Of a DNA stretch of 64,000 nt, positions 5,545 to 64,000 are shown in pieces. The notes under the pieces are model-generated. The model saw nothing but the letters and a program-made list of their open reading frames with translations. It had not been told where the DNA came from and ran no database searches. The first letter of the stretch is position 1. The number at the start of each line of letters is the position of its first letter. The stretch is taken from IMG/VR virus record IMGVR_UViG_3300035208_001913, positions 30,994 through 94,993 of that record; one strand, 5' to 3'. Both the position numbers and the translations under genes were made by a program. This DNA is from a virus (Duplodnaviria; Caudoviricetes).

Positions 5545-5875
5545 AATATTTCCATGTTAAGATTAATACCCATGGTATAACAATAAATGGAGTAAAGATA
5601 GTATCATACTTTATCAGTAATACTATACTTACTACACATGATATATAGGGCGACATACAAATACTGCATAATCCTAATGGATGCAATATCCATCTTTTCC
5701 ATCTGTCCTTTTTTCTCCAGTTCTTTATCCAATGATAAGTTAACCATAGGTAGTAACGTCGGAATATCATTCCTGGTTCCATTGTTATCTGTATCATCTT
5801 CACGATCCCAAAGGAAATAAATATTCCCATTAACGATACGACAACCTCTTTTACGACATCTAAGATTTGTAACAT
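5537..5875 (-). CDS. Small membrane protein with CxxC (holin-like candidate)
   Basis: 112 aa, 2-3 hydrophobic segments, GLCSICMSP. Confidence 0.45.
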   Translation of the reverse strand: MLQILDVVKEVVVSLMGIFISFGIVKMIQITMEPGMIFRRYYLWLTYHWIKNWRKKDRWKRWILHPLGLCSICMSPYISCVVSIVLLIKYDTIFTPFIVIPWVLILTWKYYE

Positions 5876-5878
5876 TCA

Positions 5879-6550
5879 TTACCTTTTTCTTTGTTGTTGT
5901 TGACCATCACTAGTTCCATCTCTTGCATCATTCTTTTCATCTCTTGGTATTCCATAAGTACTAAGAATATCCTGTTTTACTATCATCTCTAATTTATAAG
6001 GGTCGGGTACCGGATACATATCAGTACCTTCATCATAATCACATACATCTGCTGGGTTAGCAAATAATCCTATCATAGATACAAAACCTATAGGACATGA
6101 AAGATTACGTAATATAGCGGTATCAATACTTATAACACTATATATCGTATCATTCTTAGTCCATTTAGAGAATTTACTTGCTAATAAACCTGCTAAACTC
6201 TTTCGAGTAAAATTCTTATTTAAATCTAAGGTTCCTAAATATTTAATGTTTATCCATCCTACTCTTGTTAACAAAGCAGGAAGGGTAACATATATTTCAT
6301 TAATCCCTGTATCTTCACATTCTACTTCACATGACTTATTACTATCTAATTTTACCTCTATACATTCTGTACGTTGGTAGTATAAATCATCTACTGATTT
6401 CTTTTTTTCAAATTCATCATTAATTAGTATTGCACGTACATCATTAATTTTATCGGCTATAAACTCATTATCAAGTTTACTATCATCTATGATATTATAA
6501 TTAGATAATGCTAATTTAATCGAATCTATAATTGCGGGTAGTGTTTTCAA
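5879..6550 (-). CDS. Putative neck/tail ring protein
   Basis: 223 aa; C-terminal DEKNDARD; typical size and position in crAss-like structural modules. Confidence 0.55.
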   Translation of the reverse strand: MKTLPAIIDSIKLALSNYNIIDDSKLDNEFIADKINDVRAILINDEFEKKKSVDDLYYQRTECIEVKLDSNKSCEVECEDTGINEIYVTLPALLTRVGWINIKYLGTLDLNKNFTRKSLAGLLASKFSKWTKNDTIYSVISIDTAILRNLSCPIGFVSMIGLFANPADVCDYDEGTDMYPVPDPYKLEMIVKQDILSTYGIPRDEKNDARDGTSDGQQQQRKR

Positions 6551-6607
6551 TAGTTTAAATTTTAATCAAAAATACAACAATAATTAATAATATAAAAAAA
6601 TATTATT

Positions 6608-6640
6608 AAAAAAGGGAGTTGCACAATTACAACCCCCTCT
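6608..6640 (-). terminator. Intrinsic terminator
   Basis: Hairpin gggagttg/caaccccc adjacent to an A-run on + (U-run on the minus transcript), downstream of the 6670-7887 gene. Confidence 0.6.
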
Positions 6641-6669
6641 TTCAACATCAACTGAATTAAAAATAAATA

Positions 6670-7887
6670 TTAGTATGGAAGTGCTGCTACATCATCAGCC
6701 CAACCGGTTGCTGTACCATTCCAATATTCAGTAAGTTCATTAAAATCTTTATCATAACCACCTGCTGTTGACATGTAGTCTGTTGAGAGGAATTTATTAG
6801 TAGTAACATCAACTAATTCACTTTCTCTGAAATAGAGTTCTACTTCTGATAAGAATGAATTTGCATGACTGGCTCCTACCAAATCATAATGGTCTAACTT
6901 ATTGATAATGGTAACTTTTACAAAGTTAGCATCTACAGGTTCATTACTCCTTGTCATTGCTGCTAACCATCCATTATTAGGTATATGACTGAATGTTTGG
7001 AATACTTCATCAGAAGTTAATTGAGAATAACGGTTTTTCTGTACTTCCAAGAAGTTAGTACCCCAGAATGGATCCATCTCTACTGAAAATGTTACATCAG
7101 TATATTTTGCAATAAGACCAATATAAATTTCAGTATTTGTATTTGCTATAGTACCTGCAGTATTTGTAAATGTTAATGTATTTCCAAAATTAACATCTTC
7201 ATGTGCAATAATTACTATAGACGTTGCAACTGTAGGATGTTGATACGCATATGCTGTAGTTCCTGCATTAATATTAGCAATAAAACCTGCAATAGTACCT
7301 GATGCGGCAACTATATGTTGACTTGTTAAACCTGCATTAAGTGTCATAGCTGAAGCAGCATTCCATGAATCTAAGATTAACGATTTACCTGCTTTTACTA
7401 TTGTTCCGGGTTGTTCATAAGGAAACGCAGGTTTGTAACCCAAATCTTTATTAATCTGCTCAATGATAGTTTCTTTCATTGTCAATATCTGAGCAAGAGA
7501 AATAAGATGATCATTTGGTGCTGCCTGTGATACTGGTTTTGTAATAAGTCCTGAATAAGGAGTCATTTTATGATAATAATCACTGTTATCTACTCCTGGT
7601 TTCTTAACTGATTTTCTTATTGACAAACCATAGTCATAGTTACATTCTACGCATGGCATATTTCCAGTAAGCGAAACTAACTGTACTTTAGGCAACCATG
7701 AAGTAGTATGACTAACATATACTTTTGTTACACCTGATATAAAAGGAATACTATATCCATGGTCTTTTAATACTAATACTTTTTTTGCTAACATAGTATC
7801 ATAATATGCACCAATTGCTGAAGAATCAATAACATTAAATAATACTTTTTTTGAGGGTTGGGATAAATTCCCGCCTTGTGCTGACAT
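6670..7887 (-). CDS. Putative auxiliary capsid/structural protein
   Basis: 405 aa, Ala/Thr-rich middle; in the same transcript as the major capsid gene, followed by a terminator. Confidence 0.5.
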   Translation of the reverse strand: MSAQGGNLSQPSKKVLFNVIDSSAIGAYYDTMLAKKVLVLKDHGYSIPFISGVTKVYVSHTTSWLPKVQLVSLTGNMPCVECNYDYGLSIRKSVKKPGVDNSDYYHKMTPYSGLITKPVSQAAPNDHLISLAQILTMKETIIEQINKDLGYKPAFPYEQPGTIVKAGKSLILDSWNAASAMTLNAGLTSQHIVAASGTIAGFIANINAGTTAYAYQHPTVATSIVIIAHEDVNFGNTLTFTNTAGTIANTNTEIYIGLIAKYTDVTFSVEMDPFWGTNFLEVQKNRYSQLTSDEVFQTFSHIPNNGWLAAMTRSNEPVDANFVKVTIINKLDHYDLVGASHANSFLSEVELYFRESELVDVTTNKFLSTDYMSTAGGYDKDFNELTEYWNGTATGWADDVAALPY

Positions 7888-24415: not shown

Positions 24416-25174
24416 TTAATTATTTTGATATTTAAAAATAAATCCCCTTATTGTTTTACGTTCATTTCTACAAACTCGTCTTATACTATTATAACAAATA
24501 CCCGTATCTTTACATGCTATATTAATATTATCAAAAGTATTTATTAATTCATTTAGTTTAGAATATTGAAATACTTTAATCCAATTTTCTTCTTTTTTAA
24601 AATGACTTTTACTTAGATTTTCTATATGTTTAGAACTAAATATAATACCTTTTCTTGAATTACTTATTTTATTTTTTGTTTCTTCAGTTCTTTTTTTTCC
24701 TAACATATATTTATTACCTTTTTTTAATTCCGATATTTTCTTTTTAAATAATTCTGATTTTTTAGAACCTAAATTATATTTATTACCTTTCCTATATTTC
24801 ATTAACATTAAATTTACTTCATCTGACATTTTTCTACCTGGTTTTCCAGTTAATGCTTTACTTATTTTCAGTTTAGTTTCATTAGACATTATTCTTACAT
24901 TACCACCATCTATAAGATTTAATCCATATTTTGAATTAAAAGTTTGAAATAAATCAACATAATATTTTTCTAATTCATTTAATTGTTCAGAATTACATTC
25001 TTGTAATATTTCAAATTTATGTTTATCAACACCATATTTTTTTAAAGAATTATAAATTCTTGGTTGTGATTTACACTTTAAATACTTATATTCTTTCCAT
25101 CTTTTTTCAATATCTTTACTTTGTCCAATATAAATATTCATAGTTGGACTTGTTATCTTATATATTCCTATCAT
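24416..25174 (-). CDS. GIY-YIG homing endonuclease with NUMOD repeats
   Basis: GIYKIT...IYIGQS; repeated SxETKxKIS; C-terminal NUMOD1-like HTH. Confidence 0.85.
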   Translation of the reverse strand: MIGIYKITSPTMNIYIGQSKDIEKRWKEYKYLKCKSQPRIYNSLKKYGVDKHKFEILQECNSEQLNELEKYYVDLFQTFNSKYGLNLIDGGNVRIMSNETKLKISKALTGKPGRKMSDEVNLMLMKYRKGNKYNLGSKKSELFKKKISELKKGNKYMLGKKRTEETKNKISNSRKGIIFSSKHIENLSKSHFKKEENWIKVFQYSKLNELINTFDNINIACKDTGICYNSIRRVCRNERKTIRGFIFKYQNN

Positions 25175-41948: not shown

Positions 41949-42636
41949 GAGTGTATTTATAATTCATCAGAGCCAAATGTTAGATAGATTTTTCTTATTA
42001 AGCATAACTATTAAGAGGCAAACTTTGCTCTTTTCTTCTTATTCGGGTGGTTCTGATGATAAAAAGGAGCGGTTTGCTTTCTTAATATATATGGTTTTCG
42101 GTTCGGGTATTTTAAACCAATGCTTACACACTTATAAAAGCAGAAAAAATACGGAGAAACTACACAAACTATACTGTAATAATTCCTGCACTGTCTTACG
42201 ATTGACAACAGGTACTTGCATGGCTGGAGAGCTAAAACAGTATGATGTACAAGGGCATCTTTGGTTGAGGAGTAGTATTGATAGTCTTAGTGTTGTAATA
42301 AAGACTATGCTAATTGAATGTAAAAGAATAAGAAGAATATAAGAATGGGTATTTAAGAGTAGAAGTTTTAAAGACTTGCTCATTAAACAATCATTTGTTC
42401 ATTCGCCAACATTCTTAATACATGCAAGGGAAAAATCGTTATGCAAATATTTGAAAAAAAAATAATTTAAAAATAAATTAAAATGGCAAAGAAAAGTAAA
42501 GTAACTAATTATTAAAAATAATTTTATATCTTTGTATAATCAAATGTACGAGATTTGAAAGATATTGGTTGTAAAACCTCGAAGCCTCTTTCGGTTAGCT
42601 CGTACCTAATTGTTTGAGGCTTTTAAATTTTTAATT

Positions 42637-43299
42637 ATGATAGGCATATATAAAATAACATCACCAAGTAAGAAAATTTATATTGGACAATCAATTCATA
42701 TAGAAGAAAGATTTAAGGATTATAAATATAAAATTTGCAAACAACAATCTAAATTATATTCTTCTCTTAAAAAACATGGATATGATAAACATAAATTTGA
42801 AATATTGCAAGAATGTAATTTGGAACAACTTAATGAATTAGAAAAATATTATATAGAACTTTTTCAATGTTTCAATTCCAAATATGGATTGAATTTAAGA
42901 GAAGGTGGTGGTGCAAAAGGTAAAATGTCTGATGAAACTAAATTAAAAATAAAAAATATTAAAACAGGAAAAACTCAAAGTAAGGAAAGTAATGAAAAAA
43001 GAAGTTTAGCATTAAAAGGAATTAAACGAAAACCAAGAACACAAGAACATACGGATAAAATAACATGTAAAATAAAAGGAAAAAAACGTTCAGAAAATAC
43101 TAAACAAAAAATGAGTATTTCTAAATTAAATATGTCTCAGGAAACAAAAAATAAAATGAGTATATTTCATAAAAATCTTCCCGATAATCTAAGAAAAAAA
43201 CATAGTAATATTATGAAAAAAAATTGGAATAATCCAGAATATAGAGAAATGATGATTAATGCTCAAAATAAAAATAAATATAAAATAAATAAAATTTAA
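42637..43299 (+). CDS. GIY-YIG homing endonuclease with NUMOD3 repeats
   Basis: MIGIYKITSPS...IYIGQS; start placed at ATG 42637; own TATCTTTG promoter at 42527. Confidence 0.85.
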   Translation: MIGIYKITSPSKKIYIGQSIHIEERFKDYKYKICKQQSKLYSSLKKHGYDKHKFEILQECNLEQLNELEKYYIELFQCFNSKYGLNLREGGGAKGKMSDETKLKIKNIKTGKTQSKESNEKRSLALKGIKRKPRTQEHTDKITCKIKGKKRSENTKQKMSISKLNMSQETKNKMSIFHKNLPDNLRKKHSNIMKKNWNNPEYREMMINAQNKNKYKINKI

Positions 43300-46897: not shown

Positions 46898-47416
46898 ATG
46901 AATAGAACAGAAATAATGACATCTGAACAATTTCGGGAAGCTCTTAATAATGGTTCCATAAAAGTAGGTACAAAAGGTAAACTAAAAGACAAAGGATTAA
47001 AACAATTATTTAGAGACCCTATGAAGTTACCAACTACAGAGAATAAACGTGTAAGAAATGCCAAAAAGGTGCTCGATATAGAAGGGAATGTTATCGCTGA
47101 CTCTAAGTTAGAGTTTCAACTTAAAAGTGCTTTACAAACGCTTAAAATCAATTTTACATTTCAAGAAAAATTTATACTTATACCTAAATGTTATGACCGT
47201 TATACTAAAAAGAATATTCAGGAAACATCATGGACCATAGACTTTGTATTTAAAGAAAAAAAGGTAGCTGTTGACTGTAAAGGTTGGACAACTGAAATCG
47301 CAAAATTAAAAATGAAACTATTCCGTTCAATTTTTAGTGAATGGGATATAATATTTGTCAAAAATTTAAACGAACTAATGAAAGCAATCGAATTTATTAA
47401 TAATAAAAAAAATTAA
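46898..47416 (+). CDS. DUF1064-like PD-(D/E)xK endonuclease/resolvase
   Basis: DSKLE...Q.KF.L...IDF...VDCKG. Confidence 0.7.
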   Translation: MNRTEIMTSEQFREALNNGSIKVGTKGKLKDKGLKQLFRDPMKLPTTENKRVRNAKKVLDIEGNVIADSKLEFQLKSALQTLKINFTFQEKFILIPKCYDRYTKKNIQETSWTIDFVFKEKKVAVDCKGWTTEIAKLKMKLFRSIFSEWDIIFVKNLNELMKAIEFINNKKN

Positions 47417-49283: not shown

Positions 49284-49709
49284 ATGAAACCCACCCTCTA
49301 CATCATATCAATATTCCTCATCTTTGAATTTGGCAGAATATCAACTACCCTTGAAACATTGCCGATACAAAACACAGACACCCTGTTTTTCTCTACGGAG
49401 CTGAACGATGTCAACTTACTTAATGCTTTGGAGTGCTTCGAGGCGAAAGCAAGCCACATAGTCCTAAAACAAGCTAAATTTGAAAGTGGAAATTATACCT
49501 CACGTCTTGCAGTTGAGGATAAAAATATTTTCGGGCTTTTTAATTCTGCTTCGGGAAAATACTATATATTTGAACATTGGATTGAAAGCGTTTTGGCTTA
49601 CAAGAATTTAGTTCAGAGAAAATATAAGGGCGGTGATTATTATAAATTTCTTGAGGAGTTGCCCTATGCGAGTGATGGAAATTATTGCGGGAAGGTTAGG
49701 GGGATGTAA
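49284..49709 (+). CDS. Glucosaminidase/FlgJ-like (GH73-type) peptidoglycan hydrolase with N-terminal hydrophobic anchor
   Basis: QAKFESG...NIFGL...YASD.NY; ATG 49284 preferred as start; its TAA is the first TAAC core of array 1. Confidence 0.7.
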   Translation: MKPTLYIISIFLIFEFGRISTTLETLPIQNTDTLFFSTELNDVNLLNALECFEAKASHIVLKQAKFESGNYTSRLAVEDKNIFGLFNSASGKYYIFEHWIESVLAYKNLVQRKYKGGDYYKFLEELPYASDGNYCGKVRGM

Positions 49710-49843
49710 CGGTTGGTGGCTTGGCGAAGTACCGCCTTGCAGAATGTTCAAATATAGTACAAAGGCTTGTGGCGGTATTTTGCCAAACCACTGTTATAAG
49801 CCGTTTTTATTCGTGTTTGGCTTAACAATTTAATTTAAAAACA

Positions 49844-50149: not shown

Positions 50150-50223
50150 AATGGCTTATAACGGATGTGTGTATGGCACGTTGCTTACACTTAACTTGAC
50201 TTGAAACACAAAACTTTAATAAT

Positions 50224-50400
50224 ATGGAAACAGATAATTTGAAACACGAAAAGCAATGTGCTATACACGATGTTATATACAGTCGTTATTTGGAAAAGAT
50301 TGAAAAAGAAAGGCGTGAAAAGCAGGTAATGTTAGACTTGTGGTATATGGCAACAAAAGGTAAGCAAGTTGTGTTGTGCGTTGGAAACGATTGTATATAA
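50224..50400 (+). CDS. Cassette M2 gene, 58 aa; not in the ORF track (copy at 56459-56635)
   Basis: METDNLKHEKQCAIHDVIYSRYLEKIEKERREKQVMLDLWYMATKGKQVVLCVGNDCI; starts in the hairpin loop and stops in TAAC. Confidence 0.6.
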   Translation: METDNLKHEKQCAIHDVIYSRYLEKIEKERREKQVMLDLWYMATKGKQVVLCVGNDCI

Positions 50401-51988
50401 CTACCCGCTAAATATAATAACATATTTTATATCTTTATTAAAAATAAAATCACTACTTTTTAAACCTATTATAAATAAATTACCCTTTTAAAATGAAAAT
50501 AATCTTTCAAATAGTCGTATCTAATGAAAAGGACACAATAATCGATAGTGTTAAAGTAATGATACCTATTAATGATATAGATAATAGCTTTACAAGGCTT
50601 AAATACCTATTAATTAAAAAATTCAATATCCCATCAAATTACACAATAGATTTTGGAGTTACAAATAATTATAAATTTGCAAAAATGAACTACATAGGAG
50701 CACGGCTAAGAAACGAAATAATATCAATAATCAAAGAAGTAAAAGAAAGCGGGCAAGATTACAGTCTTGACCTTATAGCAAGTAAGTTGCATAGTGAAGG
50801 TAGGATAAGCAAATGTCATTATAATAGGCTTAAAGAAGATGAGATGTTAAGAAAAAGAATTTTGAATAATGTAAATAAATAAATAAAATTATGAGATATT
50901 TAGTAAGTTTTTTAGAAAATAATATAAGAAAATCTTTTTATACGAACTGGTATGAAAGTTCTAACAACTTCGATATTGATTTAGATATGATTGTATTTGA
51001 TTTCTCAACTCATAAATTTAGTGTTGATGGTATTAACTGGATAGATATAGAAGAAGATCACTTGTAAATAAATAAAAATTATGAAAAAAGATAATCTATA
51101 TTTGCCGAGCAATGGGACTGAAGGTGATGGATTTATGTCTATATGGTGCGAAAACTGTAAAAAAGATACAATGCTTAGAGGCGGTGAAACACAATGTTCA
51201 ATACTTACTAATGCACTTGTTAAAGGATACGTAAAGCAATGGGTGTATATTGATAATGTACCTATTTGTACGTCATTTGTAAAAGTTGGTACTATACAAA
51301 AGCATAAGAAACGTATTGCTAAAAATCAAATAATAATAGGAGACTTATAAATTATGAAAACAACCTACTGTGGAGACACCACTATAAAATGCAGACATAG
51401 AGATAAAGACGTTTGCAAACAGACAAAAGATTGTAGTCTTAAAAAAGATTGTAGTCTTAAAATAAGTGAAAAAGAATTTGATGCAGAATGCGACCATTAC
51501 TTTCCTGCAACAAATAAAGGATACTTACCTTGTGAGTTTTGTGGTAAAATTAAACCTGAATAATTATGAAACTCCAAACAGGTAAAACGCTTACAGAGCT
51601 TGCAAGGCTCTATGAGATAGAGGCAAAATATAATGAATTATTAAAACAGTTAAAAAATGATTAGAATAGTAGGAAAAGTAATCGTTAAGACCATGCCAGC
51701 TTCATGTTCTGAATGTTCATTCATTCAAGAGGACTGGAAGTGTATATTAACCGGATACTTCTACACTTCTTATGTTGACAGAAATCCACTTTGTCCTCTT
51801 AAATCAAAAGATAATAAAAACAGGTGTTATTCGCCTAACTGCCAAAGAAATGCACCTGTAAATGATATATTTTGTAAAAAACATAGATAAATAATTAACC
51901 CTCTTAAAACCTTCTCACTTGTATAGGATAAGTGCACAGCGAAGCCGAAAACTGTATAGAGTAGGCAAAATTTTAAATAATTAAAAGT

Positions 51989-52960
51989 ATGGAAATAGAA
52001 AATGTATATTATCTGCAAAGTGGTAGAATATTTGTCGCTAAAACAGATGATAATAGATATATTGAATTTACCGAAATGAGAGACGTAAAGACTGATTCAA
52101 AAGAAAATGAAGAAGTTAGAAATACGCAGGACACACGAATAATTTGGAAGCATTTAGATAAGTTTACAAATAAATGGTTAATGACTGTTTCCACTCAAAT
52201 TGGGTGCACTCATAAATGTAAATTTTGCGATGTCTCATTATTAAAATTTGGCAGAAATTTAACAGAACATGAAATATGGTGGCAAATAGACCAAATTATA
52301 AAATGCACTCCTTACGTTACACAAACAAACAAAGCAAAGATAGGATTTGCCAGAATGGGTGAGCCTGCTCATAATTTTTTAAATGTTTCTGATATTATCT
52401 GCAATTTGAAAGGATATAAAGGGTTTAATTGGTTGCCTTGTTTTAATAGTATTTTACCGAATAAAACAATACAGGGGATAACTTCTACTGATATATTAAT
52501 GAGAATGATTAATATAAAGGAAAGTATTTATGATGGTTTTTTACATTTACAACTAAGTATAAATTCAACAGATGAACAGAAAAGAAAAGAGTTATTTGGG
52601 GGTGCTTCCGTTATGGAATTGGAAAATATTATAAACCTTGTTAATAAATCAAATATTTCAAATAGAAAAGTGACATTGAATTTTATCGTTATGAAAGGCG
52701 TTCCTGTTGATGTTTCTGTACTTAAAAAAATGAATATAAATTCAGATAAAATTATTGTCAAATTAATTCCTTTAAACCAAACTGATATTGCTCAAACATC
52801 AAATTTAGAAACATTTGCAAATTACTCAAATTACGAGGTATTACAGCAACTTAGAGACGATTTTAAAAAGGAAGGTATAGAAACTGTTGTAGATACTATT
52901 GCACGCTGTGAAGATGCCGGTTTATGTTGTGGACAAATAATACATACTCATTATGAATAA
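51989..52960 (+). CDS. RlmN/Cfr-like radical SAM protein (copy at 58224-59195)
   Basis: VSTQIGCTHKCKFC, RNL...EI..QI, MGEP, LIPLN, CGQ motifs. Confidence 0.8.
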   Translation: MEIENVYYLQSGRIFVAKTDDNRYIEFTEMRDVKTDSKENEEVRNTQDTRIIWKHLDKFTNKWLMTVSTQIGCTHKCKFCDVSLLKFGRNLTEHEIWWQIDQIIKCTPYVTQTNKAKIGFARMGEPAHNFLNVSDIICNLKGYKGFNWLPCFNSILPNKTIQGITSTDILMRMINIKESIYDGFLHLQLSINSTDEQKRKELFGGASVMELENIINLVNKSNISNRKVTLNFIVMKGVPVDVSVLKKMNINSDKIIVKLIPLNQTDIAQTSNLETFANYSNYEVLQQLRDDFKKEGIETVVDTIARCEDAGLCCGQIIHTHYE

Positions 52961-53609
52961 AAATATAAGTATAATTACAAATTTTGGATGTCGGGCAAAT
53001 TGTTGGTACTGTATATGGAAAGGACACCCCTACGAAAAAGTAAACCTTAAAACAGATTGGAATAAATTAGAAAACTTTTTATCAGAATATAAATGTAAGG
53101 GAAAAGTATCTGTTTCTGGCGGTGGTGATTGCCTTTATAGATATGATGAATTTGTAGGATGGTGGGTAAAATTATTACAAATTACTAATTCATTAAATAT
53201 AAAATTAGATATTCATACAAGAGAAAAATTTACAAAACAATCTTTTTGGAAAAATAATGTTAACCGTTGTGTATTTTCGAGTGATTTTTTTGATACTGAT
53301 AAAGAATGGTTTGAATATATAATAAATTTTACAAAACTTAGAATTACTCACGTTGTTACTGAATTTTCTACTATTGAAAATACACAAAAATATATTGATT
53401 TTTGCAAAGAAAATAATTGTCAATTTACATTAAAAGAATTAGTATCATTTAATGATAATGGCAATTATAAATTATTTAAAGAATTATTTAGTAATGAGTT
53501 TTTTCTCGATGGTGGTGATTATAATATTTACTATTTTCCTGACAATTCTATTCAAGAAAAATTTATTTCCTCAGCAACAACATCAAACAATAGCGGATAT
53601 AGATTATAA
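52953..53609 (+). CDS. Radical SAM protein (copy at 59188-59844)
   Basis: CxxxCxxC (GCRANCWYC), VSVSGGGD. Confidence 0.8.
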   Translation: MNKNISIITNFGCRANCWYCIWKGHPYEKVNLKTDWNKLENFLSEYKCKGKVSVSGGGDCLYRYDEFVGWWVKLLQITNSLNIKLDIHTREKFTKQSFWKNNVNRCVFSSDFFDTDKEWFEYIINFTKLRITHVVTEFSTIENTQKYIDFCKENNCQFTLKELVSFNDNGNYKLFKELFSNEFFLDGGDYNIYYFPDNSIQEKFISSATTSNNSGYRL

Positions 53610-54215
53610 CTTTCCAACAGCAAAACCAAAAATGAAGCTAACAATATTACCACCCCACCAGATTTTCTTTCTCTTAAGTTCACCAGCATACGCATTTTGA
53701 GCATTCTCATATCCCACCTGCCACCTGTCAGATTGCATCTGAATAACATTATTCTTTACCTGTAATGTATCTATTCTATTTCCCTGTATGTCTATAATAG
53801 AATCAGCTTTTGATAATTCTATACGAGTTAATTTCAATATGGTATCAGTTGCTATTGCCTGTTTTACTTGTTTTTCAGTAAAGCCAATAATAGTATCGTT
53901 TTCACGTGGCACTAATACAACAGAATCAAAAACAGCAATACAACTTTCTATGGTTTCCGCAAAAGTCAAACTATCTACATAAACAGTAACAGTCTTTATA
54001 GTTTCATGTACTTTGTTTTTAGATGTTTTAAGGCTGTCTATTGAATCTGATTGTAATTGTAGTACATTGTTTAATCTTGCAATAGTTATGCTGTCCTGTG
54101 AATTGTCAATAGTTGTGGTGGGCTTTTCAGTAAACTCATGCCAAGCGAATAAAGCAATTATAATTACTAAGGCTGTAATGATTATGTTTTTGAGGGTGTT
54201 ATTATTTATTGTCAT
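53604..54215 (-). CDS. Membrane-anchored coiled-coil protein, spanin-like candidate (copy at 59839-60450)
   Basis: N-terminal TM segment, coiled coil, C-terminal hydrophobic tail. Confidence 0.45.
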   Translation of the reverse strand: MTINNNTLKNIIITALVIIIALFAWHEFTEKPTTTIDNSQDSITIARLNNVLQLQSDSIDSLKTSKNKVHETIKTVTVYVDSLTFAETIESCIAVFDSVVLVPRENDTIIGFTEKQVKQAIATDTILKLTRIELSKADSIIDIQGNRIDTLQVKNNVIQMQSDRWQVGYENAQNAYAGELKRKKIWWGGNIVSFIFGFAVGKL

Positions 54216-54534
54216 TTTCTTCTTTTTTAGTATAAGTACCTGATGTTGTTATTATTGTATAGTCAATAGGTTTATAATCTGATGTTTGGCAACCGTACAT
54301 TACTACTGTTGGTTGGACGTTAGGAAATGGGTACGGTGGGTATGTTTTTTTAGGTAGTTTTTTTATCCAGTCCTCAATATTCTTTTCAGCTTCTTTGTCA
54401 GCTTTTGGCAAGTCATTTTCTGATACTTTTTCAAGTTCAGTAATAACATCATTGATTACTTCTTCTAAAGGTTTGTCCTTTGATACGGCTTTTAAATATC
54501 CTTTAATCCAAAAAATAAATTCTTTATATTTCAT
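54202..54534 (-). CDS. Hypothetical protein (copy at 60437-60769)
   Basis: 110 aa; TACATTTG promoter element at 54560-54567 on the minus strand. Confidence 0.6.
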   Translation of the reverse strand: MKYKEFIFWIKGYLKAVSKDKPLEEVINDVITELEKVSENDLPKADKEAEKNIEDWIKKLPKKTYPPYPFPNVQPTVVMYGCQTSDYKPIDYTIITTSGTYTKKEENDNK

Positions 54535-54599
54535 AATAAAATAATTTTAATATTTATTGCAAATGTAAGGAAAGTTTTTGTATTTTTGTAAAATAATAT

Positions 54600-54671
54600 A
54601 GCGAGGCGGTTGTTGGTTACCCGCAAGGCTCATAACCTTTGCTCTCGTGAGTTCGATTCTCACCCTCGCAA
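54600..54671 (+). tRNA. tRNA with CAT anticodon (Met/fMet or Ile2)
   Basis: gcgagg/cctcgc acceptor with 1:72 mismatch, aagg-ctcataa-cctt anticodon arm, gtgag-ttcgatt-ctcac T arm; no encoded CCA. Confidence 0.75.
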
Positions 54672-54673
54672 CT

Positions 54674-54703
54674 AAGCTCTTTATTGACGTAAGGAGCTTT
54701 TTT
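54674..54703 (+). terminator. Intrinsic terminator after the tRNA
   Basis: aagctc...gagctt hairpin followed by a T run. Confidence 0.6.
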
Positions 54704-54808
54704 ATTTGATTACAAACTCACTTTACCGTTGTTTTTTGCTTACTTTCCGCACCTATACTGCAATAGCTTATTTGATTGGAAAAATTAACAATTTTTTATT
54801 AAATTTAT

Positions 54809-54839
54809 TTTGATATATATAATATATATATTATCTTTG
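54809..54839 (+). promoter_or_regulatory. Bacteroidota promoter TTTG-N19-TATCTTTG heading cassette array 2 (copy at 61044-61074)
   Basis: Consensus elements ending 11 nt before the first TAAC (54850). Confidence 0.7.
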
Positions 54840-54907
54840 CTGAAATTATTAACTATTAGCGGTATATTGTTGGGATTTTTACGGATTAAAAACATAAATA
54901 TAATTAT

Positions 54908-55183
54908 ATGGACAAAAATGTATTAAAAGGCATAGCAGAAAGAAAACTTGAACACATGAGACACGGATGTTTTCGTGGCGGACTAAATCACTTCTTGGAC
55001 ACGGGTTCGATTAATGGCAGTTTTCTTGATGCCTTAAATGAATTAGCTGAAGAAATAGTAAAAACCTGCAATATACCGCCTGTTATAAAATCGGTTTGCG
55101 AGTTTTGTGGACACGAACATTTAATGCGTGGCAAAAATGGTGTGTGGTGTGAGGAATGCCTTAAAAAGCAAACTGTTTTATAA
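54908..55183 (+). CDS. Cassette M3 gene with C-terminal zinc ribbon (copy at 61143-61418)
   Basis: CEFC...CEEC; stop codon inside TAAC. Confidence 0.65.
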   Translation: MDKNVLKGIAERKLEHMRHGCFRGGLNHFLDTGSINGSFLDALNELAEEIVKTCNIPPVIKSVCEFCGHEHLMRGKNGVWCEECLKKQTVL

Positions 55184-55431
55184 CGGTGCGTGTATGAAAC
55201 GTGGTGGGATAGAAACCACCTAACTATCAAAATACAAATAACTTAATAGAATGGAACAAACTTTAAATAACGCAGAAACCCCACCATGTTTTATACACGG
55301 TGTGTGTGCCCCGTTTTTATTTAGAATTATTATAAATATACGATTAAATGTAAAATAATTGCTTTTTTATTTGGAAATTACAATTATTCGTTGTATATTT
55401 GTAGGGTAATAATAAATTAAAACTTTGAATT

Positions 55432-55794
55432 ATGAAAACGATAAAATGTTACAGATGCAACGGAACAGGAACAACACCACACAAACACATAGCCAATGGA
55501 GTATGCTTTGCTTGTGGAGGTTCTGGTATTCTTGAGTATAAAGATGATAGTTTTGAAAATAGTTTAATGTGGTTTTGCAAAGATGTTAGACCAACTATTA
55601 CAGATGGGTGCAGTTGCAAAATGATTAAAAATACAAGTTTTGAAGGACGTGGAGTTGATAAGGGTGGTGAGTTTATAGCAAAAAGAGTTGGTGAAAGCGT
55701 AATTTTTTGGAATAAAAAAGCAGGTGCAAACTGGCACTTTGATGTACCTATGACAGCAGTAGATTTAATGAAAAAACACTTTGTGAAAATATGA
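55432..55794 (+). CDS. Cassette M4 gene 1 with DnaJ-type CxxCxGxG zinc finger (copy at 61667-62029)
   Basis: CYRCNGTG...CFACGGSG; internal promoter at 55370-55401. Confidence 0.7.
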   Translation: MKTIKCYRCNGTGTTPHKHIANGVCFACGGSGILEYKDDSFENSLMWFCKDVRPTITDGCSCKMIKNTSFEGRGVDKGGEFIAKRVGESVIFWNKKAGANWHFDVPMTAVDLMKKHFVKI

Positions 55795-55988
55795 GAATAA
55801 TACTCGCAATATTTACAGATAGGTTTGAGGTTTACGGAAGCCTTAAACCTTTCTTTGAGCAATATCCGCAATATGCTGAACTCAAAGATAAAATTGATTA
55901 TACTATGTCTCGTAAAAAATTACCATTCGAGCATTCAGAATTTAAGTTACAACGGATGAACGTTCGGAGGTCTTTAAATGGGGTATAA
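55791..55988 (+). CDS. Cassette M4 gene 2, small putative DNA-binding protein (copy at 62026-62223)
   Basis: 65 aa, ATGA-coupled to gene 1; stop codon inside TAAC. Confidence 0.6.
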   Translation: MRIILAIFTDRFEVYGSLKPFFEQYPQYAELKDKIDYTMSRKKLPFEHSEFKLQRMNVRRSLNGV

Positions 55989-56017
55989 CGGTTCGCAAGT
56001 ATATTTAGTTGCGGATT

Positions 56018-56106
56018 TAGAAGCACAAAACTTTAAATTAAGATAAAATGAAAATAGAAGCACAAAACTTTAAATTAAGATAAAATGAAAATAGAAGCAC
56101 AAAACT
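56018..56106. repeat. 37-bp tandem repeat (about 2.4 copies) in the M5 hairpin loop
   Basis: tagaagcacaaaactttaaattaagataaaatgaaaa starting at 56018, 56055 and 56092 (partial). Confidence 0.85.
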
Positions 56107-56396
56107 CGGATAAACCACAGAACCCCCAATTGAGTAAGGGTGCTGTTATGTGCCGTACTTTTTCCAATATGTTCTTTTGGTTTGGAATACAACTATTTGA
56201 TAGCCGACTTAAAGAATATGGTGGGTTTAATCACTTTATCGCTGGTAAAATTTTCAGATGGAAATATTGCTATTTGTCAATTGCACTCCGTAAACAATGG
56301 CGATTTGAATGGATACACGAAAGCGATGATTATTACTATGACGGCTATCATAATAGCATTACAATTGGGTGTCTGCAAATCTCGTATGGCACATAA
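56085..56396 (+). CDS. Cassette M5 gene, hypothetical (copy at 62320-62631)
   Basis: 103 aa; starts in the loop and stops in TAAC. Confidence 0.65.
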   Translation: MKIEAQNSDKPQNPQLSKGAVMCRTFSNMFFWFGIQLFDSRLKEYGGFNHFIAGKIFRWKYCYLSIALRKQWRFEWIHESDDYYYDGYHNSITIGCLQISYGT

Positions 56397-59300
56397 CGGA
56401 TGTGTGTATGGCACGTTGCTTACACTTAACTTGACTTGAAACACAAAACTTTAATAATATGGAAACAGATAATTTGAAACACGAAAAGCAATGTGCTATA
56501 CACGATGTTATATACAGTCGTTATTTGGAAAAGATTGAAAAAGAAAGGCGTGAAAAGCAGGTAATGTTAGACTTGTGGTATATGGCAACAAAAGGTAAGC
56601 AAGTTGTGTTGTGCGTTGGAAACGATTGTATATAACTACCCGCTAAATATAATAACATATTTTATATCTTTATTAAAAATAAAATCACTACTTTTTAAAC
56701 CTATTATAAATAAATTACCCTTTTAAAATGAAAATAATCTTTCAAATAGTCGTATCTAATGAAAAGGACACAATAATCGATAGTGTTAAAGTAATGATAC
56801 CTATTAATGATATAGATAATAGCTTTACAAGGCTTAAATACCTATTAATTAAAAAATTCAATATCCCATCAAATTACACAATAGATTTTGGAGTTACAAA
56901 TAATTATAAATTTGCAAAAATGAACTACATAGGAGCACGGCTAAGAAACGAAATAATATCAATAATCAAAGAAGTAAAAGAAAGCGGGCAAGATTACAGT
57001 CTTGACCTTATAGCAAGTAAGTTGCATAGTGAAGGTAGGATAAGCAAATGTCATTATAATAGGCTTAAAGAAGATGAGATGTTAAGAAAAAGAATTTTGA
57101 ATAATGTAAATAAATAAATAAAATTATGAGATATTTAGTAAGTTTTTTAGAAAATAATATAAGAAAATCTTTTTATACGAACTGGTATGAAAGTTCTAAC
57201 AACTTCGATATTGATTTAGATATGATTGTATTTGATTTCTCAACTCATAAATTTAGTGTTGATGGTATTAACTGGATAGATATAGAAGAAGATCACTTGT
57301 AAATAAATAAAAATTATGAAAAAAGATAATCTATATTTGCCGAGCAATGGGACTGAAGGTGATGGATTTATGTCTATATGGTGCGAAAACTGTAAAAAAG
57401 ATACAATGCTTAGAGGCGGTGAAACACAATGTTCAATACTTACTAATGCACTTGTTAAAGGATACGTAAAGCAATGGGTGTATATTGATAATGTACCTAT
57501 TTGTACGTCATTTGTAAAAGTTGGTACTATACAAAAGCATAAGAAACGTATTGCTAAAAATCAAATAATAATAGGAGACTTATAAATTATGAAAACAACC
57601 TACTGTGGAGACACCACTATAAAATGCAGACATAGAGATAAAGACGTTTGCAAACAGACAAAAGATTGTAGTCTTAAAAAAGATTGTAGTCTTAAAATAA
57701 GTGAAAAAGAATTTGATGCAGAATGCGACCATTACTTTCCTGCAACAAATAAAGGATACTTACCTTGTGAGTTTTGTGGTAAAATTAAACCTGAATAATT
57801 ATGAAACTCCAAACAGGTAAAACGCTTACAGAGCTTGCAAGGCTCTATGAGATAGAGGCAAAATATAATGAATTATTAAAACAGTTAAAAAATGATTAGA
57901 ATAGTAGGAAAAGTAATCGTTAAGACCATGCCAGCTTCATGTTCTGAATGTTCATTCATTCAAGAGGACTGGAAGTGTATATTAACCGGATACTTCTACA
58001 CTTCTTATGTTGACAGAAATCCACTTTGTCCTCTTAAATCAAAAGATAATAAAAACAGGTGTTATTCGCCTAACTGCCAAAGAAATGCACCTGTAAATGA
58101 TATATTTTGTAAAAAACATAGATAAATAATTAACCCTCTTAAAACCTTCTCACTTGTATAGGATAAGTGCACAGCGAAGCCGAAAACTGTATAGAGTAGG
58201 CAAAATTTTAAATAATTAAAAGTATGGAAATAGAAAATGTATATTATCTGCAAAGTGGTAGAATATTTGTCGCTAAAACAGATGATAATAGATATATTGA
58301 ATTTACCGAAATGAGAGACGTAAAGACTGATTCAAAAGAAAATGAAGAAGTTAGAAATACGCAGGACACACGAATAATTTGGAAGCATTTAGATAAGTTT
58401 ACAAATAAATGGTTAATGACTGTTTCCACTCAAATTGGGTGCACTCATAAATGTAAATTTTGCGATGTCTCATTATTAAAATTTGGCAGAAATTTAACAG
58501 AACATGAAATATGGTGGCAAATAGACCAAATTATAAAATGCACTCCTTACGTTACACAAACAAACAAAGCAAAGATAGGATTTGCCAGAATGGGTGAGCC
58601 TGCTCATAATTTTTTAAATGTTTCTGATATTATCTGCAATTTGAAAGGATATAAAGGGTTTAATTGGTTGCCTTGTTTTAATAGTATTTTACCGAATAAA
58701 ACAATACAGGGGATAACTTCTACTGATATATTAATGAGAATGATTAATATAAAGGAAAGTATTTATGATGGTTTTTTACATTTACAACTAAGTATAAATT
58801 CAACAGATGAACAGAAAAGAAAAGAGTTATTTGGGGGTGCTTCCGTTATGGAATTGGAAAATATTATAAACCTTGTTAATAAATCAAATATTTCAAATAG
58901 AAAAGTGACATTGAATTTTATCGTTATGAAAGGCGTTCCTGTTGATGTTTCTGTACTTAAAAAAATGAATATAAATTCAGATAAAATTATTGTCAAATTA
59001 ATTCCTTTAAACCAAACTGATATTGCTCAAACATCAAATTTAGAAACATTTGCAAATTACTCAAATTACGAGGTATTACAGCAACTTAGAGACGATTTTA
59101 AAAAGGAAGGTATAGAAACTGTTGTAGATACTATTGCACGCTGTGAAGATGCCGGTTTATGTTGTGGACAAATAATACATACTCATTATGAATAAAAATA
59201 TAAGTATAATTACAAATTTTGGATGTCGGGCAAATTGTTGGTACTGTATATGGAAAGGACACCCCTACGAAAAAGTAAACCTTAAAACAGATTGGAATAA

Positions 59301-60834
59301 ATTAGAAAACTTTTTATCAGAATATAAATGTAAGGGAAAAGTATCTGTTTCTGGCGGTGGTGATTGCCTTTATAGATATGATGAATTTGTAGGATGGTGG
59401 GTAAAATTATTACAAATTACTAATTCATTAAATATAAAATTAGATATTCATACAAGAGAAAAATTTACAAAACAATCTTTTTGGAAAAATAATGTTAACC
59501 GTTGTGTATTTTCGAGTGATTTTTTTGATACTGATAAAGAATGGTTTGAATATATAATAAATTTTACAAAACTTAGAATTACTCACGTTGTTACTGAATT
59601 TTCTACTATTGAAAATACACAAAAATATATTGATTTTTGCAAAGAAAATAATTGTCAATTTACATTAAAAGAATTAGTATCATTTAATGATAATGGCAAT
59701 TATAAATTATTTAAAGAATTATTTAGTAATGAGTTTTTTCTCGATGGTGGTGATTATAATATTTACTATTTTCCTGACAATTCTATTCAAGAAAAATTTA
59801 TTTCCTCAGCAACAACATCAAACAATAGCGGATATAGATTATAACTTTCCAACAGCAAAACCAAAAATGAAGCTAACAATATTACCACCCCACCAGATTT
59901 TCTTTCTCTTAAGTTCACCAGCATACGCATTTTGAGCATTCTCATATCCCACCTGCCACCTGTCAGATTGCATCTGAATAACATTATTCTTTACCTGTAA
60001 TGTATCTATTCTATTTCCCTGTATGTCTATAATAGAATCAGCTTTTGATAATTCTATACGAGTTAATTTCAATATGGTATCAGTTGCTATTGCCTGTTTT
60101 ACTTGTTTTTCAGTAAAGCCAATAATAGTATCGTTTTCACGTGGCACTAATACAACAGAATCAAAAACAGCAATACAACTTTCTATGGTTTCCGCAAAAG
60201 TCAAACTATCTACATAAACAGTAACAGTCTTTATAGTTTCATGTACTTTGTTTTTAGATGTTTTAAGGCTGTCTATTGAATCTGATTGTAATTGTAGTAC
60301 ATTGTTTAATCTTGCAATAGTTATGCTGTCCTGTGAATTGTCAATAGTTGTGGTGGGCTTTTCAGTAAACTCATGCCAAGCGAATAAAGCAATTATAATT
60401 ACTAAGGCTGTAATGATTATGTTTTTGAGGGTGTTATTATTTATTGTCATTTTCTTCTTTTTTAGTATAAGTACCTGATGTTGTTATTATTGTATAGTCA
60501 ATAGGTTTATAATCTGATGTTTGGCAACCGTACATTACTACTGTTGGTTGGACGTTAGGAAATGGGTACGGTGGGTATGTTTTTTTAGGTAGTTTTTTTA
60601 TCCAGTCCTCAATATTCTTTTCAGCTTCTTTGTCAGCTTTTGGCAAGTCATTTTCTGATACTTTTTCAAGTTCAGTAATAACATCATTGATTACTTCTTC
60701 TAAAGGTTTGTCCTTTGATACGGCTTTTAAATATCCTTTAATCCAAAAAATAAATTCTTTATATTTCATAATAAAATAATTTTAATATTTATTGCAAATG
60801 TAAGGAAAGTTTTTGTATTTTTGTAAAATAATAT

Positions 60835-60906
60835 AGCGAGGCGGTTGTTGGTTACCCGCAAGGCTCATAACCTTTGCTCTCGTGAGTTCGATTCTCACCC
60901 TCGCAA
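60835..60906 (+). tRNA. tRNA(CAT), duplicate copy
   Basis: Identical to 54600-54671. Confidence 0.75.
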
Positions 60907-62698
60907 CTAAGCTCTTTATTGACGTAAGGAGCTTTTTTATTTGATTACAAACTCACTTTACCGTTGTTTTTTGCTTACTTTCCGCACCTATACTGCAATA
61001 GCTTATTTGATTGGAAAAATTAACAATTTTTTATTAAATTTATTTTGATATATATAATATATATATTATCTTTGCTGAAATTATTAACTATTAGCGGTAT
61101 ATTGTTGGGATTTTTACGGATTAAAAACATAAATATAATTATATGGACAAAAATGTATTAAAAGGCATAGCAGAAAGAAAACTTGAACACATGAGACACG
61201 GATGTTTTCGTGGCGGACTAAATCACTTCTTGGACACGGGTTCGATTAATGGCAGTTTTCTTGATGCCTTAAATGAATTAGCTGAAGAAATAGTAAAAAC
61301 CTGCAATATACCGCCTGTTATAAAATCGGTTTGCGAGTTTTGTGGACACGAACATTTAATGCGTGGCAAAAATGGTGTGTGGTGTGAGGAATGCCTTAAA
61401 AAGCAAACTGTTTTATAACGGTGCGTGTATGAAACGTGGTGGGATAGAAACCACCTAACTATCAAAATACAAATAACTTAATAGAATGGAACAAACTTTA
61501 AATAACGCAGAAACCCCACCATGTTTTATACACGGTGTGTGTGCCCCGTTTTTATTTAGAATTATTATAAATATACGATTAAATGTAAAATAATTGCTTT
61601 TTTATTTGGAAATTACAATTATTCGTTGTATATTTGTAGGGTAATAATAAATTAAAACTTTGAATTATGAAAACGATAAAATGTTACAGATGCAACGGAA
61701 CAGGAACAACACCACACAAACACATAGCCAATGGAGTATGCTTTGCTTGTGGAGGTTCTGGTATTCTTGAGTATAAAGATGATAGTTTTGAAAATAGTTT
61801 AATGTGGTTTTGCAAAGATGTTAGACCAACTATTACAGATGGGTGCAGTTGCAAAATGATTAAAAATACAAGTTTTGAAGGACGTGGAGTTGATAAGGGT
61901 GGTGAGTTTATAGCAAAAAGAGTTGGTGAAAGCGTAATTTTTTGGAATAAAAAAGCAGGTGCAAACTGGCACTTTGATGTACCTATGACAGCAGTAGATT
62001 TAATGAAAAAACACTTTGTGAAAATATGAGAATAATACTCGCAATATTTACAGATAGGTTTGAGGTTTACGGAAGCCTTAAACCTTTCTTTGAGCAATAT
62101 CCGCAATATGCTGAACTCAAAGATAAAATTGATTATACTATGTCTCGTAAAAAATTACCATTCGAGCATTCAGAATTTAAGTTACAACGGATGAACGTTC
62201 GGAGGTCTTTAAATGGGGTATAACGGTTCGCAAGTATATTTAGTTGCGGATTTAGAAGCACAAAACTTTAAATTAAGATAAAATGAAAATAGAAGCACAA
62301 AACTTTAAATTAAGATAAAATGAAAATAGAAGCACAAAACTCGGATAAACCACAGAACCCCCAATTGAGTAAGGGTGCTGTTATGTGCCGTACTTTTTCC
62401 AATATGTTCTTTTGGTTTGGAATACAACTATTTGATAGCCGACTTAAAGAATATGGTGGGTTTAATCACTTTATCGCTGGTAAAATTTTCAGATGGAAAT
62501 ATTGCTATTTGTCAATTGCACTCCGTAAACAATGGCGATTTGAATGGATACACGAAAGCGATGATTATTACTATGACGGCTATCATAATAGCATTACAAT
62601 TGGGTGTCTGCAAATCTCGTATGGCACATAACGTTTTGGCGGTTGGCGTTCGTTGCCGACTTTGAAACACGAAACTTTCACTTTAAAAAAAAATTGAT

Positions 62699-62986
62699 AT
62701 GGAAAACAAAACTTCAACAATCCACGAAAACGGCAATGACGCTAACCGCTTGTTACCTGCCGTTTTACTTGATATGAACGAAAGGTATTATTTTAAAACA
62801 CGAGGACAAGAACCTAATGTAGAATGCACTCAAAGATGTATGTTTAGAGATAACGGAATTTGTATAGGTTCAGCAGCTTGTCAAGAATGCGAACACCATT
62901 TTGAAAATAACATTGATGAATGGGGGTGCATTAGTTGGATTAAGTGTCGTAAGATTAACGAGGCTGTGTCCAAAAATGGCAGGTAA
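62699..62986 (+). CDS. Cassette M6 gene, Cys-rich
   Basis: 95 aa; starts in the loop, reads through GTTA (RLLPAV) and stops in TAAC. Confidence 0.7.
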   Translation: MENKTSTIHENGNDANRLLPAVLLDMNERYYFKTRGQEPNVECTQRCMFRDNGICIGSAACQECEHHFENNIDEWGCISWIKCRKINEAVSKNGR

Positions 62987-63104
62987 CGGATGGCGGTATG
63001 GTTTAGGCAACCAACCACTACTGCTAACTATGAAATACAAAATTATAATTGGTTGCTTAACTATACCGCTTGTTACCAACTGGGCGGTATTAAAACCAAA
63101 ATAA

Positions 63105-63533: not shown

Positions 63534-63652
63534 CCTTGTTGGTAACGGTCGGCAATATGAAACGGTTGCCTTGTAGTTCGTTTCACAATATAGATGCAGT
63601 TTTCTGGCAACTGTTTTATATTGCTTGTTATAGCCAGTTAATTTTAAAAACT

Positions 63653-63868
63653 ATGTTAGTTAAAGACTTGAAAAAATTTTTGAATAAATTACCAGATGAC
63701 TTTGAAATAAAAATCATTACTGATAAACGAATACCAGACGATGTATTAAAAACAATGAGCTACCCTTACCCAATAGAGTCAAATAACTATGATTTTGATT
63801 TCGGTGATATAGGTTGGAGTTCAAAAATTACATCATTGAGAATAAAGTTGGACGAGCCACTTGATTAA
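63653..63868 (+). CDS. Cassette M8 gene, hypothetical (MLVKDLKKFLNKLPDD...)
   Basis: Likely ATG at 63653 after an A-rich initiation region; lies between gttatagccagttaat and attaattggctataac. Confidence 0.65.
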   Translation: MLVKDLKKFLNKLPDDFEIKIITDKRIPDDVLKTMSYPYPIESNNYDFDFGDIGWSSKITSLRIKLDEPLD

Positions 63869-64000
63869 TTGGCTATAACTATTTGCTAAATACAACAATT
63901 ATATATATAAAATAGTATAACTATATGATACCAAAAGAATTACAATACACTGAAAAAAAACTTTTAATGTTAACAAAACGACAAAAATCATCATTAGAAA

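Follow-up and report, generated by a model that had tools for sequence, protein, structure and literature searches.

Integrons, the textbook example of gene capture in bacteria, have the integrase IntI as their defining component and are rarely reported in phages. In 10,705 phage genomes, 17 clusters of attC sites lacking an integrase (CALIN) have been described, including one in the Polaribacter phage P12002L (PMC9892861, Front Microbiol 2023). Phage attC sites that are active with IntI1 read ATAACG...TTGTTAT (PMC9892861, Table S3), and P12002L_attC1 was the only site for which no IntI1 junction was verified (PMC9892861). In T4-type phages, repeated regulatory hairpin modules (PeSL, an early promoter with a stem-loop) precede small non-essential genes and mediate their shuffling (PMC2839356, PMC4122927). 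The locus analyzed here lies in a 64,000-nucleotide stretch of DNA (the window), which represents the last 64 kb of a 94,993-bp IMG/VR virus record (IMGVR_UViG_3300035208_001913) that is listed as 100% complete and 'linear'. The record derives from a crAss-like phage and contains a 6235-bp tandem repeat whose borders fall on the cores of integron-like hairpin sites.

Borders and copy number of the 6.2-kb repeat

The two copies of the repeat unit are identical, with 0 mismatches over 6235 bases in repeat finding and in direct comparison within the window (Table 1), which bears out the tandem duplication proposed by a previous sequence-only reading of this DNA. The identity runs from position 50158 to positions 56398/62633 and gives a repeated length of 6241 bases. 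A perfect repeat of 6.2 kb cannot have arisen by chance. The sole sequence common to the left flank, the joint between the copies and the right flank is ATAACG, as is evident from the border letters ggctt-ATAACG-gatgtg (50158), ggcac-ATAACG-gatgtg (56393) and ggcac-ATAACG-ttttgg (62628). The TAA stop codon of a 103-aa gene at the end of the unit sits inside the joint core at 56393. All three borders are the 5′ cores of imperfect hairpins of 100–130 nt (TAACG...TGTTA). The earlier statements that the break points share only ATAACG and that they lie on the conserved TAAC core of hairpin sites both stand. The crossover had also been assigned to the AAC triplet; its placement within TAAC(G) is upheld, but the restriction to AAC is not, because the sequence cannot resolve the position more finely.

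The window in its single-copy form contains ~4e5 pairs of identical 6-mers, only ~10–20 of which are located at module cores by our estimate. The position of both break points on hairpin cores is non-random, and a random microhomology joint of this kind is estimated to occur in ~1 in 2e4 cases or fewer. The same estimate bears on an artefactual origin of the joint from chimeric molecules generated during amplification or library preparation. Low-biomass groundwater samples are sometimes amplified, which is not known for the present one, but a chimera would have to meet both site cores exactly, and like joints are observed in independent assemblies (contigs L013/L005 and L259, described below). 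Such an artefact is highly improbable.

The repeat unit consists of one cassette (58-aa ORF), ~4.4 kb of AT-rich backbone and three cassettes (91 aa; 120 + 65 aa; 103 aa). TAACG is found directly after or inside the stop codons of small + strand genes at 49707, 50159, 55181, 55986, 56394 (= 62629), 62984 and 63543, and on folding, each of these motifs forms the start of an extended imperfect hairpin with (C)TGTTA at its close. In single-copy terms, seven hairpin sites are present between 49707 and 63638, without a recombinase. The AT content is higher between the two arrays (50.4–54.9 kb), and the earlier view that the partner sites belong to two separate arrays, with the ~4.4-kb AT-rich backbone carried along, holds.

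The hairpins at 50159 and 62629, which are the putative exchange partners, contain a leader, the start codon and 10–20 codons in their loops and have their 3′ arms inside the ORF. In the 50159 hairpin, the 5′ arm follows TAACGG, the leader lies in the loop together with the ATG and ~10 codons, and GATGTTAT ends the 3′ arm. With RNA parameters, this hairpin folds at −30.7 versus −21.5 for the other strand; as single-stranded DNA, it folds at −13.3 (z −2.42 versus shuffled sequences; other strand, z −0.65). The corresponding values for the 62629 hairpin are −37.1 versus −29.5 with RNA parameters and −19.3 as single-stranded DNA (z −2.52; other strand, z −1.06).

The record ends in 127 bases (63874–64000 of the window) that are identical to bases 122–248 of its head, with an offset of 121 bases. 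Because a terminal identity of 127 bases is the signature of a de Bruijn graph with k = 127, the record is a short-read assembly of this type. A graph with k = 127 cannot invent a joint with 6 shared bases, and the joint must therefore stand in the reads, which supports the previous argument that the junction (M5-to-M2 in the numbering of that reading) comes from reads. The 6.2-kb repeat cannot be spanned by such short reads, and the copy count in the contig is therefore the assembler's choice. A terminal-repeat or wrap-around artefact was rejected, as the repeat is internal and its period of 6.2 kb differs from the genome length.

From the assembled record, we infer that the virion DNA may truly carry two copies, and the unit could physically exist as a tandem repeat, an excised circle or a re-inserted cassette. 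A single-copy genome with a real joint has a considerable chance of being the correct description, somewhat short of even. In that case, the joint would derive from an excised 6.2-kb circle, or from a sub-population with a second 408-bp 103-aa cassette in front of the 58-aa gene, and the assembler would have looped twice. This explanation agrees with the inability of a k = 127 short-read graph alone to span the repeat, with the absence of mismatches expected of a collapsed single copy and with the behavior of the 103-aa cassette, which is the most mobile one seen. A parallel case also gave two outputs, in that one contig (L013) stops 127 nt into a second pass and another (L005) is a 'circular' contig of 2.3 kb. 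However, the contig passes through both copies into unique sequence without an N (the N count of the window is 0), and the explanation contests only the copy number and leaves the site-directed origin of the joint unchanged.

The ends of the record display a further exchange at a TAAC core. Record positions 1–121 are the 3′ end of a different gene or cassette that is joined to the same terminal TATAACTATTTGC (TATAAC), and the terminal 127-base identity ends directly upstream of TATAAC, where the sequences diverge. The sampled population thus holds at least two different last cassettes at the terminal site, since the record head carries a different cassette end, and this heterogeneity is probably the cause of the record not being circularized.

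Near-identical DNA is present in four sequencing runs (X1–X4; 0.81–0.98 of sampled words), namely, two groundwater metagenomes from 2022, one of which may be the source of the record, and two landfill metagenomes from 2018 that belong to other studies. An exact search of IMG/VR for the end of the unit, in a collection that excludes this record and its near copies, retrieved only L005, and a megablast search of the 6.2-kb unit against GenBank phages gave no match.

Cassette boundaries and hairpin sites in other genomes

The cores also delimit cassettes in other contigs, as observed with homologues of the 103-aa protein taken from IMG/VR and metagenomes. In homologues that keep ...TCGTATGGCACATAACG, at least 10 unrelated sequences follow straight after the TAACG core, and one contig stops exactly there. 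A 46-kb viral contig (L006) has only positions 55985–56397 in common with the window, from ATAACG to ATAAC. Two further contigs (L009 and L010), whose flanks are 99.6–99.9% identical, differ by two clean insertions of ~0.85–0.88 kb that are bounded by TAAC(G). The L006 segment and the L009/L010 insertions agree with the earlier definition of the mobile unit as a hairpin plus its downstream gene. At the left border of the repeat, a comparison with contig L129 is informative. The 101-aa left-flank gene has an L129 homologue (70% aa identity) with the end ...aaatggcttaTAACG / ...AAATGGCTTATAACG and another hairpin behind it, and the gene end ...GGCTTATAACG is shared by the homologue and the left-flank gene of the window. 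The left border is independently confirmed as a cassette boundary. In addition, 31 of 56 right-hand internal homology ends lie within 4 nt of TAACG, versus a random expectation of 1.8% within 8 nt. Many of the 56 ends are one and the same gene end and are not independent, and the clean insertions and deletions carry more weight than this count as evidence for cassette boundaries.

Duplications or loops with TAACG borders are found at two other loci. In a 38-kb contig (L013), a 2206-bp unit extends from ...GGTTACTGCTAACG/TTCAG to ...GGCACATAACG/TTCAG; a second pass through it begins at TAACG and breaks off with the contig after 127 bases. The same unit occurs as a 2320-bp contig (L005) with a TAACG start and a 114-base terminal repeat. 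In a 428-kb contig of a Chitinophagales metagenome-assembled genome (L259; apparently a hybrid assembly by name), a 595-bp cassette of a chromosomal array is present twice (1122–1716 and 2649–3243) with 100% identity and a spacing of 1.5 kb. TAACG flanks each copy on both sides, and a recombinase homologue is encoded at 4493–5296. On their border sequences, L013/L005 and L259 are independent recent duplications or loops. The L013 unit (5092–7424; L005 1–2320) contains an 83-aa ORF, a C5 DNA methyltransferase-like ORF, a 78-aa ORF, a hairpin module without a gene and, as the last element, a homologue of the 103-aa protein.

The hairpin module itself would be exchanged at its GTTA end in L034 and L031–33, because the hairpins of these contigs are fused to unrelated bodies. 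In L034 (647–900), the hairpin of the 103-aa cassette, with its leader and 21–23 N-terminal codons, continues after GCTGTTA into an unrelated Cys-rich ORF in the same frame. In L031 (552–700; likewise in L031–33), the same hairpin and N-terminal codons run into an immediate stop after GCTGTTA.

The hairpins belong to a widespread family. A search pattern of TAACG-N5-10-TTGGCGAAG-N25-55-TTTTGCCAA, built from letters common to several hairpins, matched at least 119 contigs from viruses and at least 120 from genomes, with an estimated chance expectation of less than a handful. The genome contigs are nearly all from Bacteroidota, including isolates of Flavihumibacter, Flavobacterium, Chryseobacterium, Sphingobacterium and Pedobacter. 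An alignment of 34 members reveals 21 consensus pairs, 7 of which (7/21) exhibit compensatory changes. TAACG pairs with TGTTA in 33–34 of the 34 aligned members, through a G·T pair in 33, and an asymmetric internal loop follows the core; the G·T pairs inside TTGGCGAAG/TTTTGCCAA are imposed by the search pattern and have no evidential value. A covariance model of the family (R1) identified three sites in the window at E ≤ 2.4e-4 and up to six co-oriented sites in a single locus of 5–8 kb elsewhere. None of the window hairpins matched Rfam at E ≤ 1, nor did the best of them retrieve any GenBank phage by blastn.

The strand that folds in Flavihumibacter is the one antisense to the cassette genes. 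For this reason, an RNA-only role of the hairpins, as structures of the 5′ leader, is unlikely to be their general function. In Flavihumibacter solisilvae strain 3-3 (L168, L171, L199 and L248), the array is split into small contigs (460–5008 bp) that start or end in hairpins, and a 198-kb contig ends inside the array. The hairpin repeats fragment assemblies, as do the attC sites of superintegrons.

Array-linked recombinases and the proposed exchange

No tyrosine recombinase is encoded by the phage, as examined with PF00589 at E ≤ 1 in six frames of the 95-kb record and by tblastn with an array-linked enzyme. Such an enzyme is found in F. solisilvae (L285 4822–5961), where a 379-aa tyrosine recombinase (PF00589, 2.7e-37) is located 650 nt away from an array that extends as far as the end of the contig. 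Its best NCBIfam scores are 196 bits for XerA/integron integrase (cut-off 220), 182 bits for integron integrase (cut-off 265) and ~170 bits for XerC/XerD. The match to the integron-integrase model consists of two stretches that skip the middle, with no match over the IntI-specific insert, and none of five array-bearing isolate genomes contains an integron integrase (TIGR02249) above the cut-off. The earlier link to IntI, named as the enzyme that cleaves attC at this position, is not supported on three points: the lack of a PF00589 match in the phage, the sub-threshold score of the array-linked recombinase (182 versus 265 bits) and the related published site P12002L_attC1, which is without a verified IntI1 junction (PMC9892861).

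Homologues of the F. solisilvae recombinase (tblastn, 30–47% identity) are present at 17 bacterial and 8 viral loci among those gathered by the hairpin pattern alone. At the 8 viral loci, the cassettes and the recombinase gene share a strand, with the recombinase gene behind the last cassette, and at least three of these loci (L112, L120 and L037) contain a hairpin-less TAACTAY site, similar to the terminal site of array 1 in the window, 60–100 nt upstream of the recombinase gene. Nine bacterial loci have the recombinase gene ahead of the array and the hairpins on the opposite strand. At the loci where positions were compared, the TAACG-to-TGTTA direction points to the recombinase in both layouts. 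The attC bottom strand shows the same geometry relative to intI. In the present phage, the first gene past the terminal site of array 2, across the wrap (genome bases 166–367), is a small ribbon-helix-helix-like ORF (…LSQYGVNVSEFIRRAIRRQIKDEW…). Its position after the terminal site is held by the recombinase gene in other phages.

The joint at 56393 probably originated from an exchange between same-family cassette sites at 50158 and 62628 that was catalyzed in trans by an array-type recombinase. The hairpin site at 50158 and the site now at 62628 would be the partners, each with its basal TAACG paired with TGTTA. The product could be generated by unequal exchange in which the two cores lie on separate genome copies, by release of the 6.2-kb segment in circular form or by excision followed by re-insertion. 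As each partner site belongs to a small array of its own, the 4.4 kb of ordinary phage genes between the arrays would be carried along. By analogy to the array-linked enzymes, catalysis in trans may be attributed to a Xer/IntI-like recombinase of Bacteroidota chromosomes or other phages, and the enzyme could be supplied by the host or by a co-infecting phage. The analogy to integrons is partly supported.

A recombinase-free origin of the joint explains less than recombinase-catalyzed exchange and is, on balance, unlikely. Replication might stall at a hairpin foot, and the nascent ...TAACG might re-anneal at another foot by copy choice or microhomology; alternatively, a phage resolvase might cut the bases of cruciforms. 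The joint shares only 5–6 bases, all sites have the same hairpin-foot bases, and breaks at both hairpin ends fit cutting at a cruciform base. Moreover, the phage encodes a DUF1064/Holliday-junction-resolvase-like protein (46898–47416) and no tyrosine recombinase. However, a process of this type does not account for the recombinase family with fixed geometry at the array ends of many genomes, for the invariance of TAAC/GTTA amid covarying stems or for the hairpin-less TAACTAY site beside the recombinase gene. Two other enzyme types were considered. I-TevI-like cutting by the two GIY-YIG/NUMOD3 endonucleases of the phage was dropped, as the known motif CNNNG of such enzymes is absent at TAACG and homing does not produce precise cassette borders. 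IS200/IS605 or REP/RAYT-type HUH enzymes do not fit the geometry, although a Y1 transposase was not searched for.

Several observations weigh against recombinase-catalyzed exchange in trans. The joint and the copy number are those of the assembled record. The phage encodes no recombinase, which makes catalysis in trans a conjecture. The inactivity of P12002L_attC1 with IntI1, the only published test of a site of this type, argues against IntI, and no enzyme is known to act on such sites. The partner sites at 50158 and 62628 score only 13.9 bits (E 0.9) and 9.4 bits with R1, which is marginal, and their family membership rests on fold and architecture. Homology also breaks at the 3′ GTTA hairpin end in L034 and L031–33, which a one-sided exchange does not explain. 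Finally, phage arrays and chromosome arrays have the hairpins on opposite strands with respect to the genes, a misfit with simple one-sided exchange of the integron type.

More generally, lytic crAss-like phages might keep orphan arrays that are recombined in trans by a Xer/IntI-like enzyme of the host or a co-infecting phage and that draw on a shared cassette pool. Exchange between distant sites would amplify or excise ordinary genes (here 14, including the radical-SAM pair) as a fast, reversible dosage change. This broader model is tentative, with the odds leaning slightly against it.

Features of the window and comparison with known systems

The features of the locus are compiled in Table 1.

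Table 1. Repeat copies, border cores, hairpin sites and the shared cassette gene in the window
Feature	Position	Strand	Basis or remark
Copy 1 of the 6235-bp unit	50158..56392	+	Repeat comparison
Copy 2 of the unit	56393..62627	+	Identical to copy 1
Left border core ATAACG, putative parental joint of left flank and first hairpin of unit	50158..50163	+	
Putative novel joint, end of 103-aa gene joined to hairpin heading 58-aa gene	56393..56398	+	
Right border core ATAACG, putative parental joint of 103-aa gene and next hairpin	62628..62633	+	
Hairpin heading 58-aa ORF, proposed exchange partner 1	50159..50283 (copy 56394-56518)	+	Fold, architecture
Hairpin heading 95-aa ORF, proposed exchange partner 2	62629..62756	+	TAACG...CTTGTTAC, ATG in loop
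Hairpin after glucosaminidase gene, best family member in window	49701..49804	+	R1 92.3 bits, E 3.7e-18; z −3.75
Hairpin after 91-aa gene	55181..55316 (copy 61416-61551)	+	Fold, architecture
Decayed hairpin of 103-aa cassette	55986..56135 (copy 62221-62370)	+	z −0.22
103-aa ORF, last gene of unit, widely shared cassette gene	56085..56396 (copy 62320-62631)	+	
Hairpin with upstream ORF before 142-aa gene	62978..63083	+	R1 30.1 bits, E 2.4e-4
Hairpin with upstream ORF before last cassette gene	63537..63638	+	R1 40.5 bits, E 1.2e-6
Hairpin-less terminal site of array 1	50396..50420 (copy 56631-56655)	+	ATAACTACCCGCTAAATA...
Hairpin-less terminal TAAC site of array 2	63874..64000	+	TATAACTATTTGCTAAATAC...; the 127-base stretch repeated at the record head

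The hairpins at 49707, 62984 and 63543 are located wholly upstream of the gene, and the loop ATG opens an upstream ORF of 15–29 codons that runs through the 3′ arm. The upstream ORFs in 49707–49843, 62984–63104 and 63543–63653 contain 29, 24 and 15 codons, respectively; two of the three stop 11 nt before the main ATG, and the third overlaps the main ATG (TAAATG). The 3′ arm of the 55986 hairpin is mutated relative to L006, L009 and L011, and the hairpin is intact in relatives. Its loop contains a 37-bp tandem duplication of the leader and start codon (TAGAAGCACAAAACTTTAAATTAAGATAAAATGAAAA; 56018–56106, copy 62253–62341), which provides three in-phase copies of the ATG context before the 103-aa gene.

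The backbone contains two radical-SAM genes, two minus-strand ORFs and a tRNA-like stretch, and its other ORFs are without a family match. The 'tRNA' and the 'spanin-like' genes of the sequence-only reading are not supported, as the former was not called by ARAGORN and the latter have no family match. The tRNA-like stretch (54609–54674, copy 60844–60909) has an acceptor stem, a T arm and a CAT anticodon-like loop and gives a weak tmRNA match in Rfam (15 bits, E 0.015). Just upstream of the first radical-SAM gene, a sub-threshold DUF805b RNA motif is observed (51936–51967, copy 58171–58202; 26.8 bits versus a gathering score of 35.6, E 5.6e-4). Outside the repeat, the two GIY-YIG/NUMOD3 homing-endonuclease-like paralogues (24416–25174, − strand; 42610–43299, + strand) are inverted and share ~320 nt at 78% identity.

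The locus adds a natural recombination product to an integron look-alike that is widespread in Bacteroidota and their phages and combines the core letters and hairpin logic of integrons with a different recombinase. The product suggests that the sites are active in a crAss-like phage population, that they can work between separate arrays and that they can move backbone genes in addition to cassettes. With one joint, two parental joints and known partner sites, the locus is a simple test object. For assembly practice, it illustrates why contigs of such phages break or loop at TAAC cores.

The hairpin-cassette arrays as a group share with integrons the single-gene cassettes separated by imperfect hairpins of ~60–140 nt and a hairpin foot (TAAC/GTTA) with the letters of the attC R box (RYYYAAC/GTTRRRY). 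Cassettes are gained, lost and duplicated at the core, and folding is stronger for one of the two strands. The array end to which the foldable strand points encodes a tyrosine recombinase, and a terminal site lacks the hairpin. The closest integron type is the sedentary chromosomal integron with uniform attC sites. In the window, TAACG...TGTTA hairpins head single-gene cassettes of one orientation (49701, 63537 and 62978 by R1; 50159, 55181 and 62629 by fold), and attC-type imperfect palindromes with AAC...GTT boxes are present by architecture only. In contrast to integrons, no IntI-type integrase lies beside the array in this phage. A recombinase gene at the array end is absent from this record and present beside the arrays of L285, the 8 viral loci and other bacterial loci, and the array-linked recombinase scores under the integron-integrase cut-off. 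The genes of phage arrays are on the foldable strand, with the hairpin before the gene and the start codon often in the loop. Integrons exchange between the A and the C of AAC on the folded strand; here, all joints lie within TAAC(G), and some breaks occur at the opposite, GTTA end of the hairpin. The host range is Bacteroidota.

P12002L resembles the present phage in that an orphan array is carried by a lytic phage of a Bacteroidota host. Its attC1 site (TAACGGCTACGG...GCCATTGTTA), located between two methyltransferase genes, is a short site of the present type and is matched weakly by R1 (L286 30000–30062; 17 bits, E 0.15). The P12002L study differs in treating the sites as integron attC and reports no recombination product, duplication or crAss-like phage (PMC9892861). 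The PeSL modules resemble the present sites as repeated hairpin modules that drive the shuffling of small genes, and small circles with one or more ORFs and a chimeric module also arise from them (PMC2839356). PeSL exchange, however, occurs by homologous recombination within ~50–70 bp of similarity (promoter and Shine-Dalgarno sequences), whereas the partners here share 6 bases. The combination of a sigma-70 early promoter and a terminator stem-loop exchanged by homology does not describe this locus, in which the stems are unrelated, the hairpins measure ~100 nt and the sites are also chromosomal and tied to a tyrosine recombinase. A literature search that left most subscription journals outside its range retrieved only the CALIN and PeSL papers and no paper on Bacteroidota hairpin arrays with a recombinase or on such a product in a crAss-like phage.

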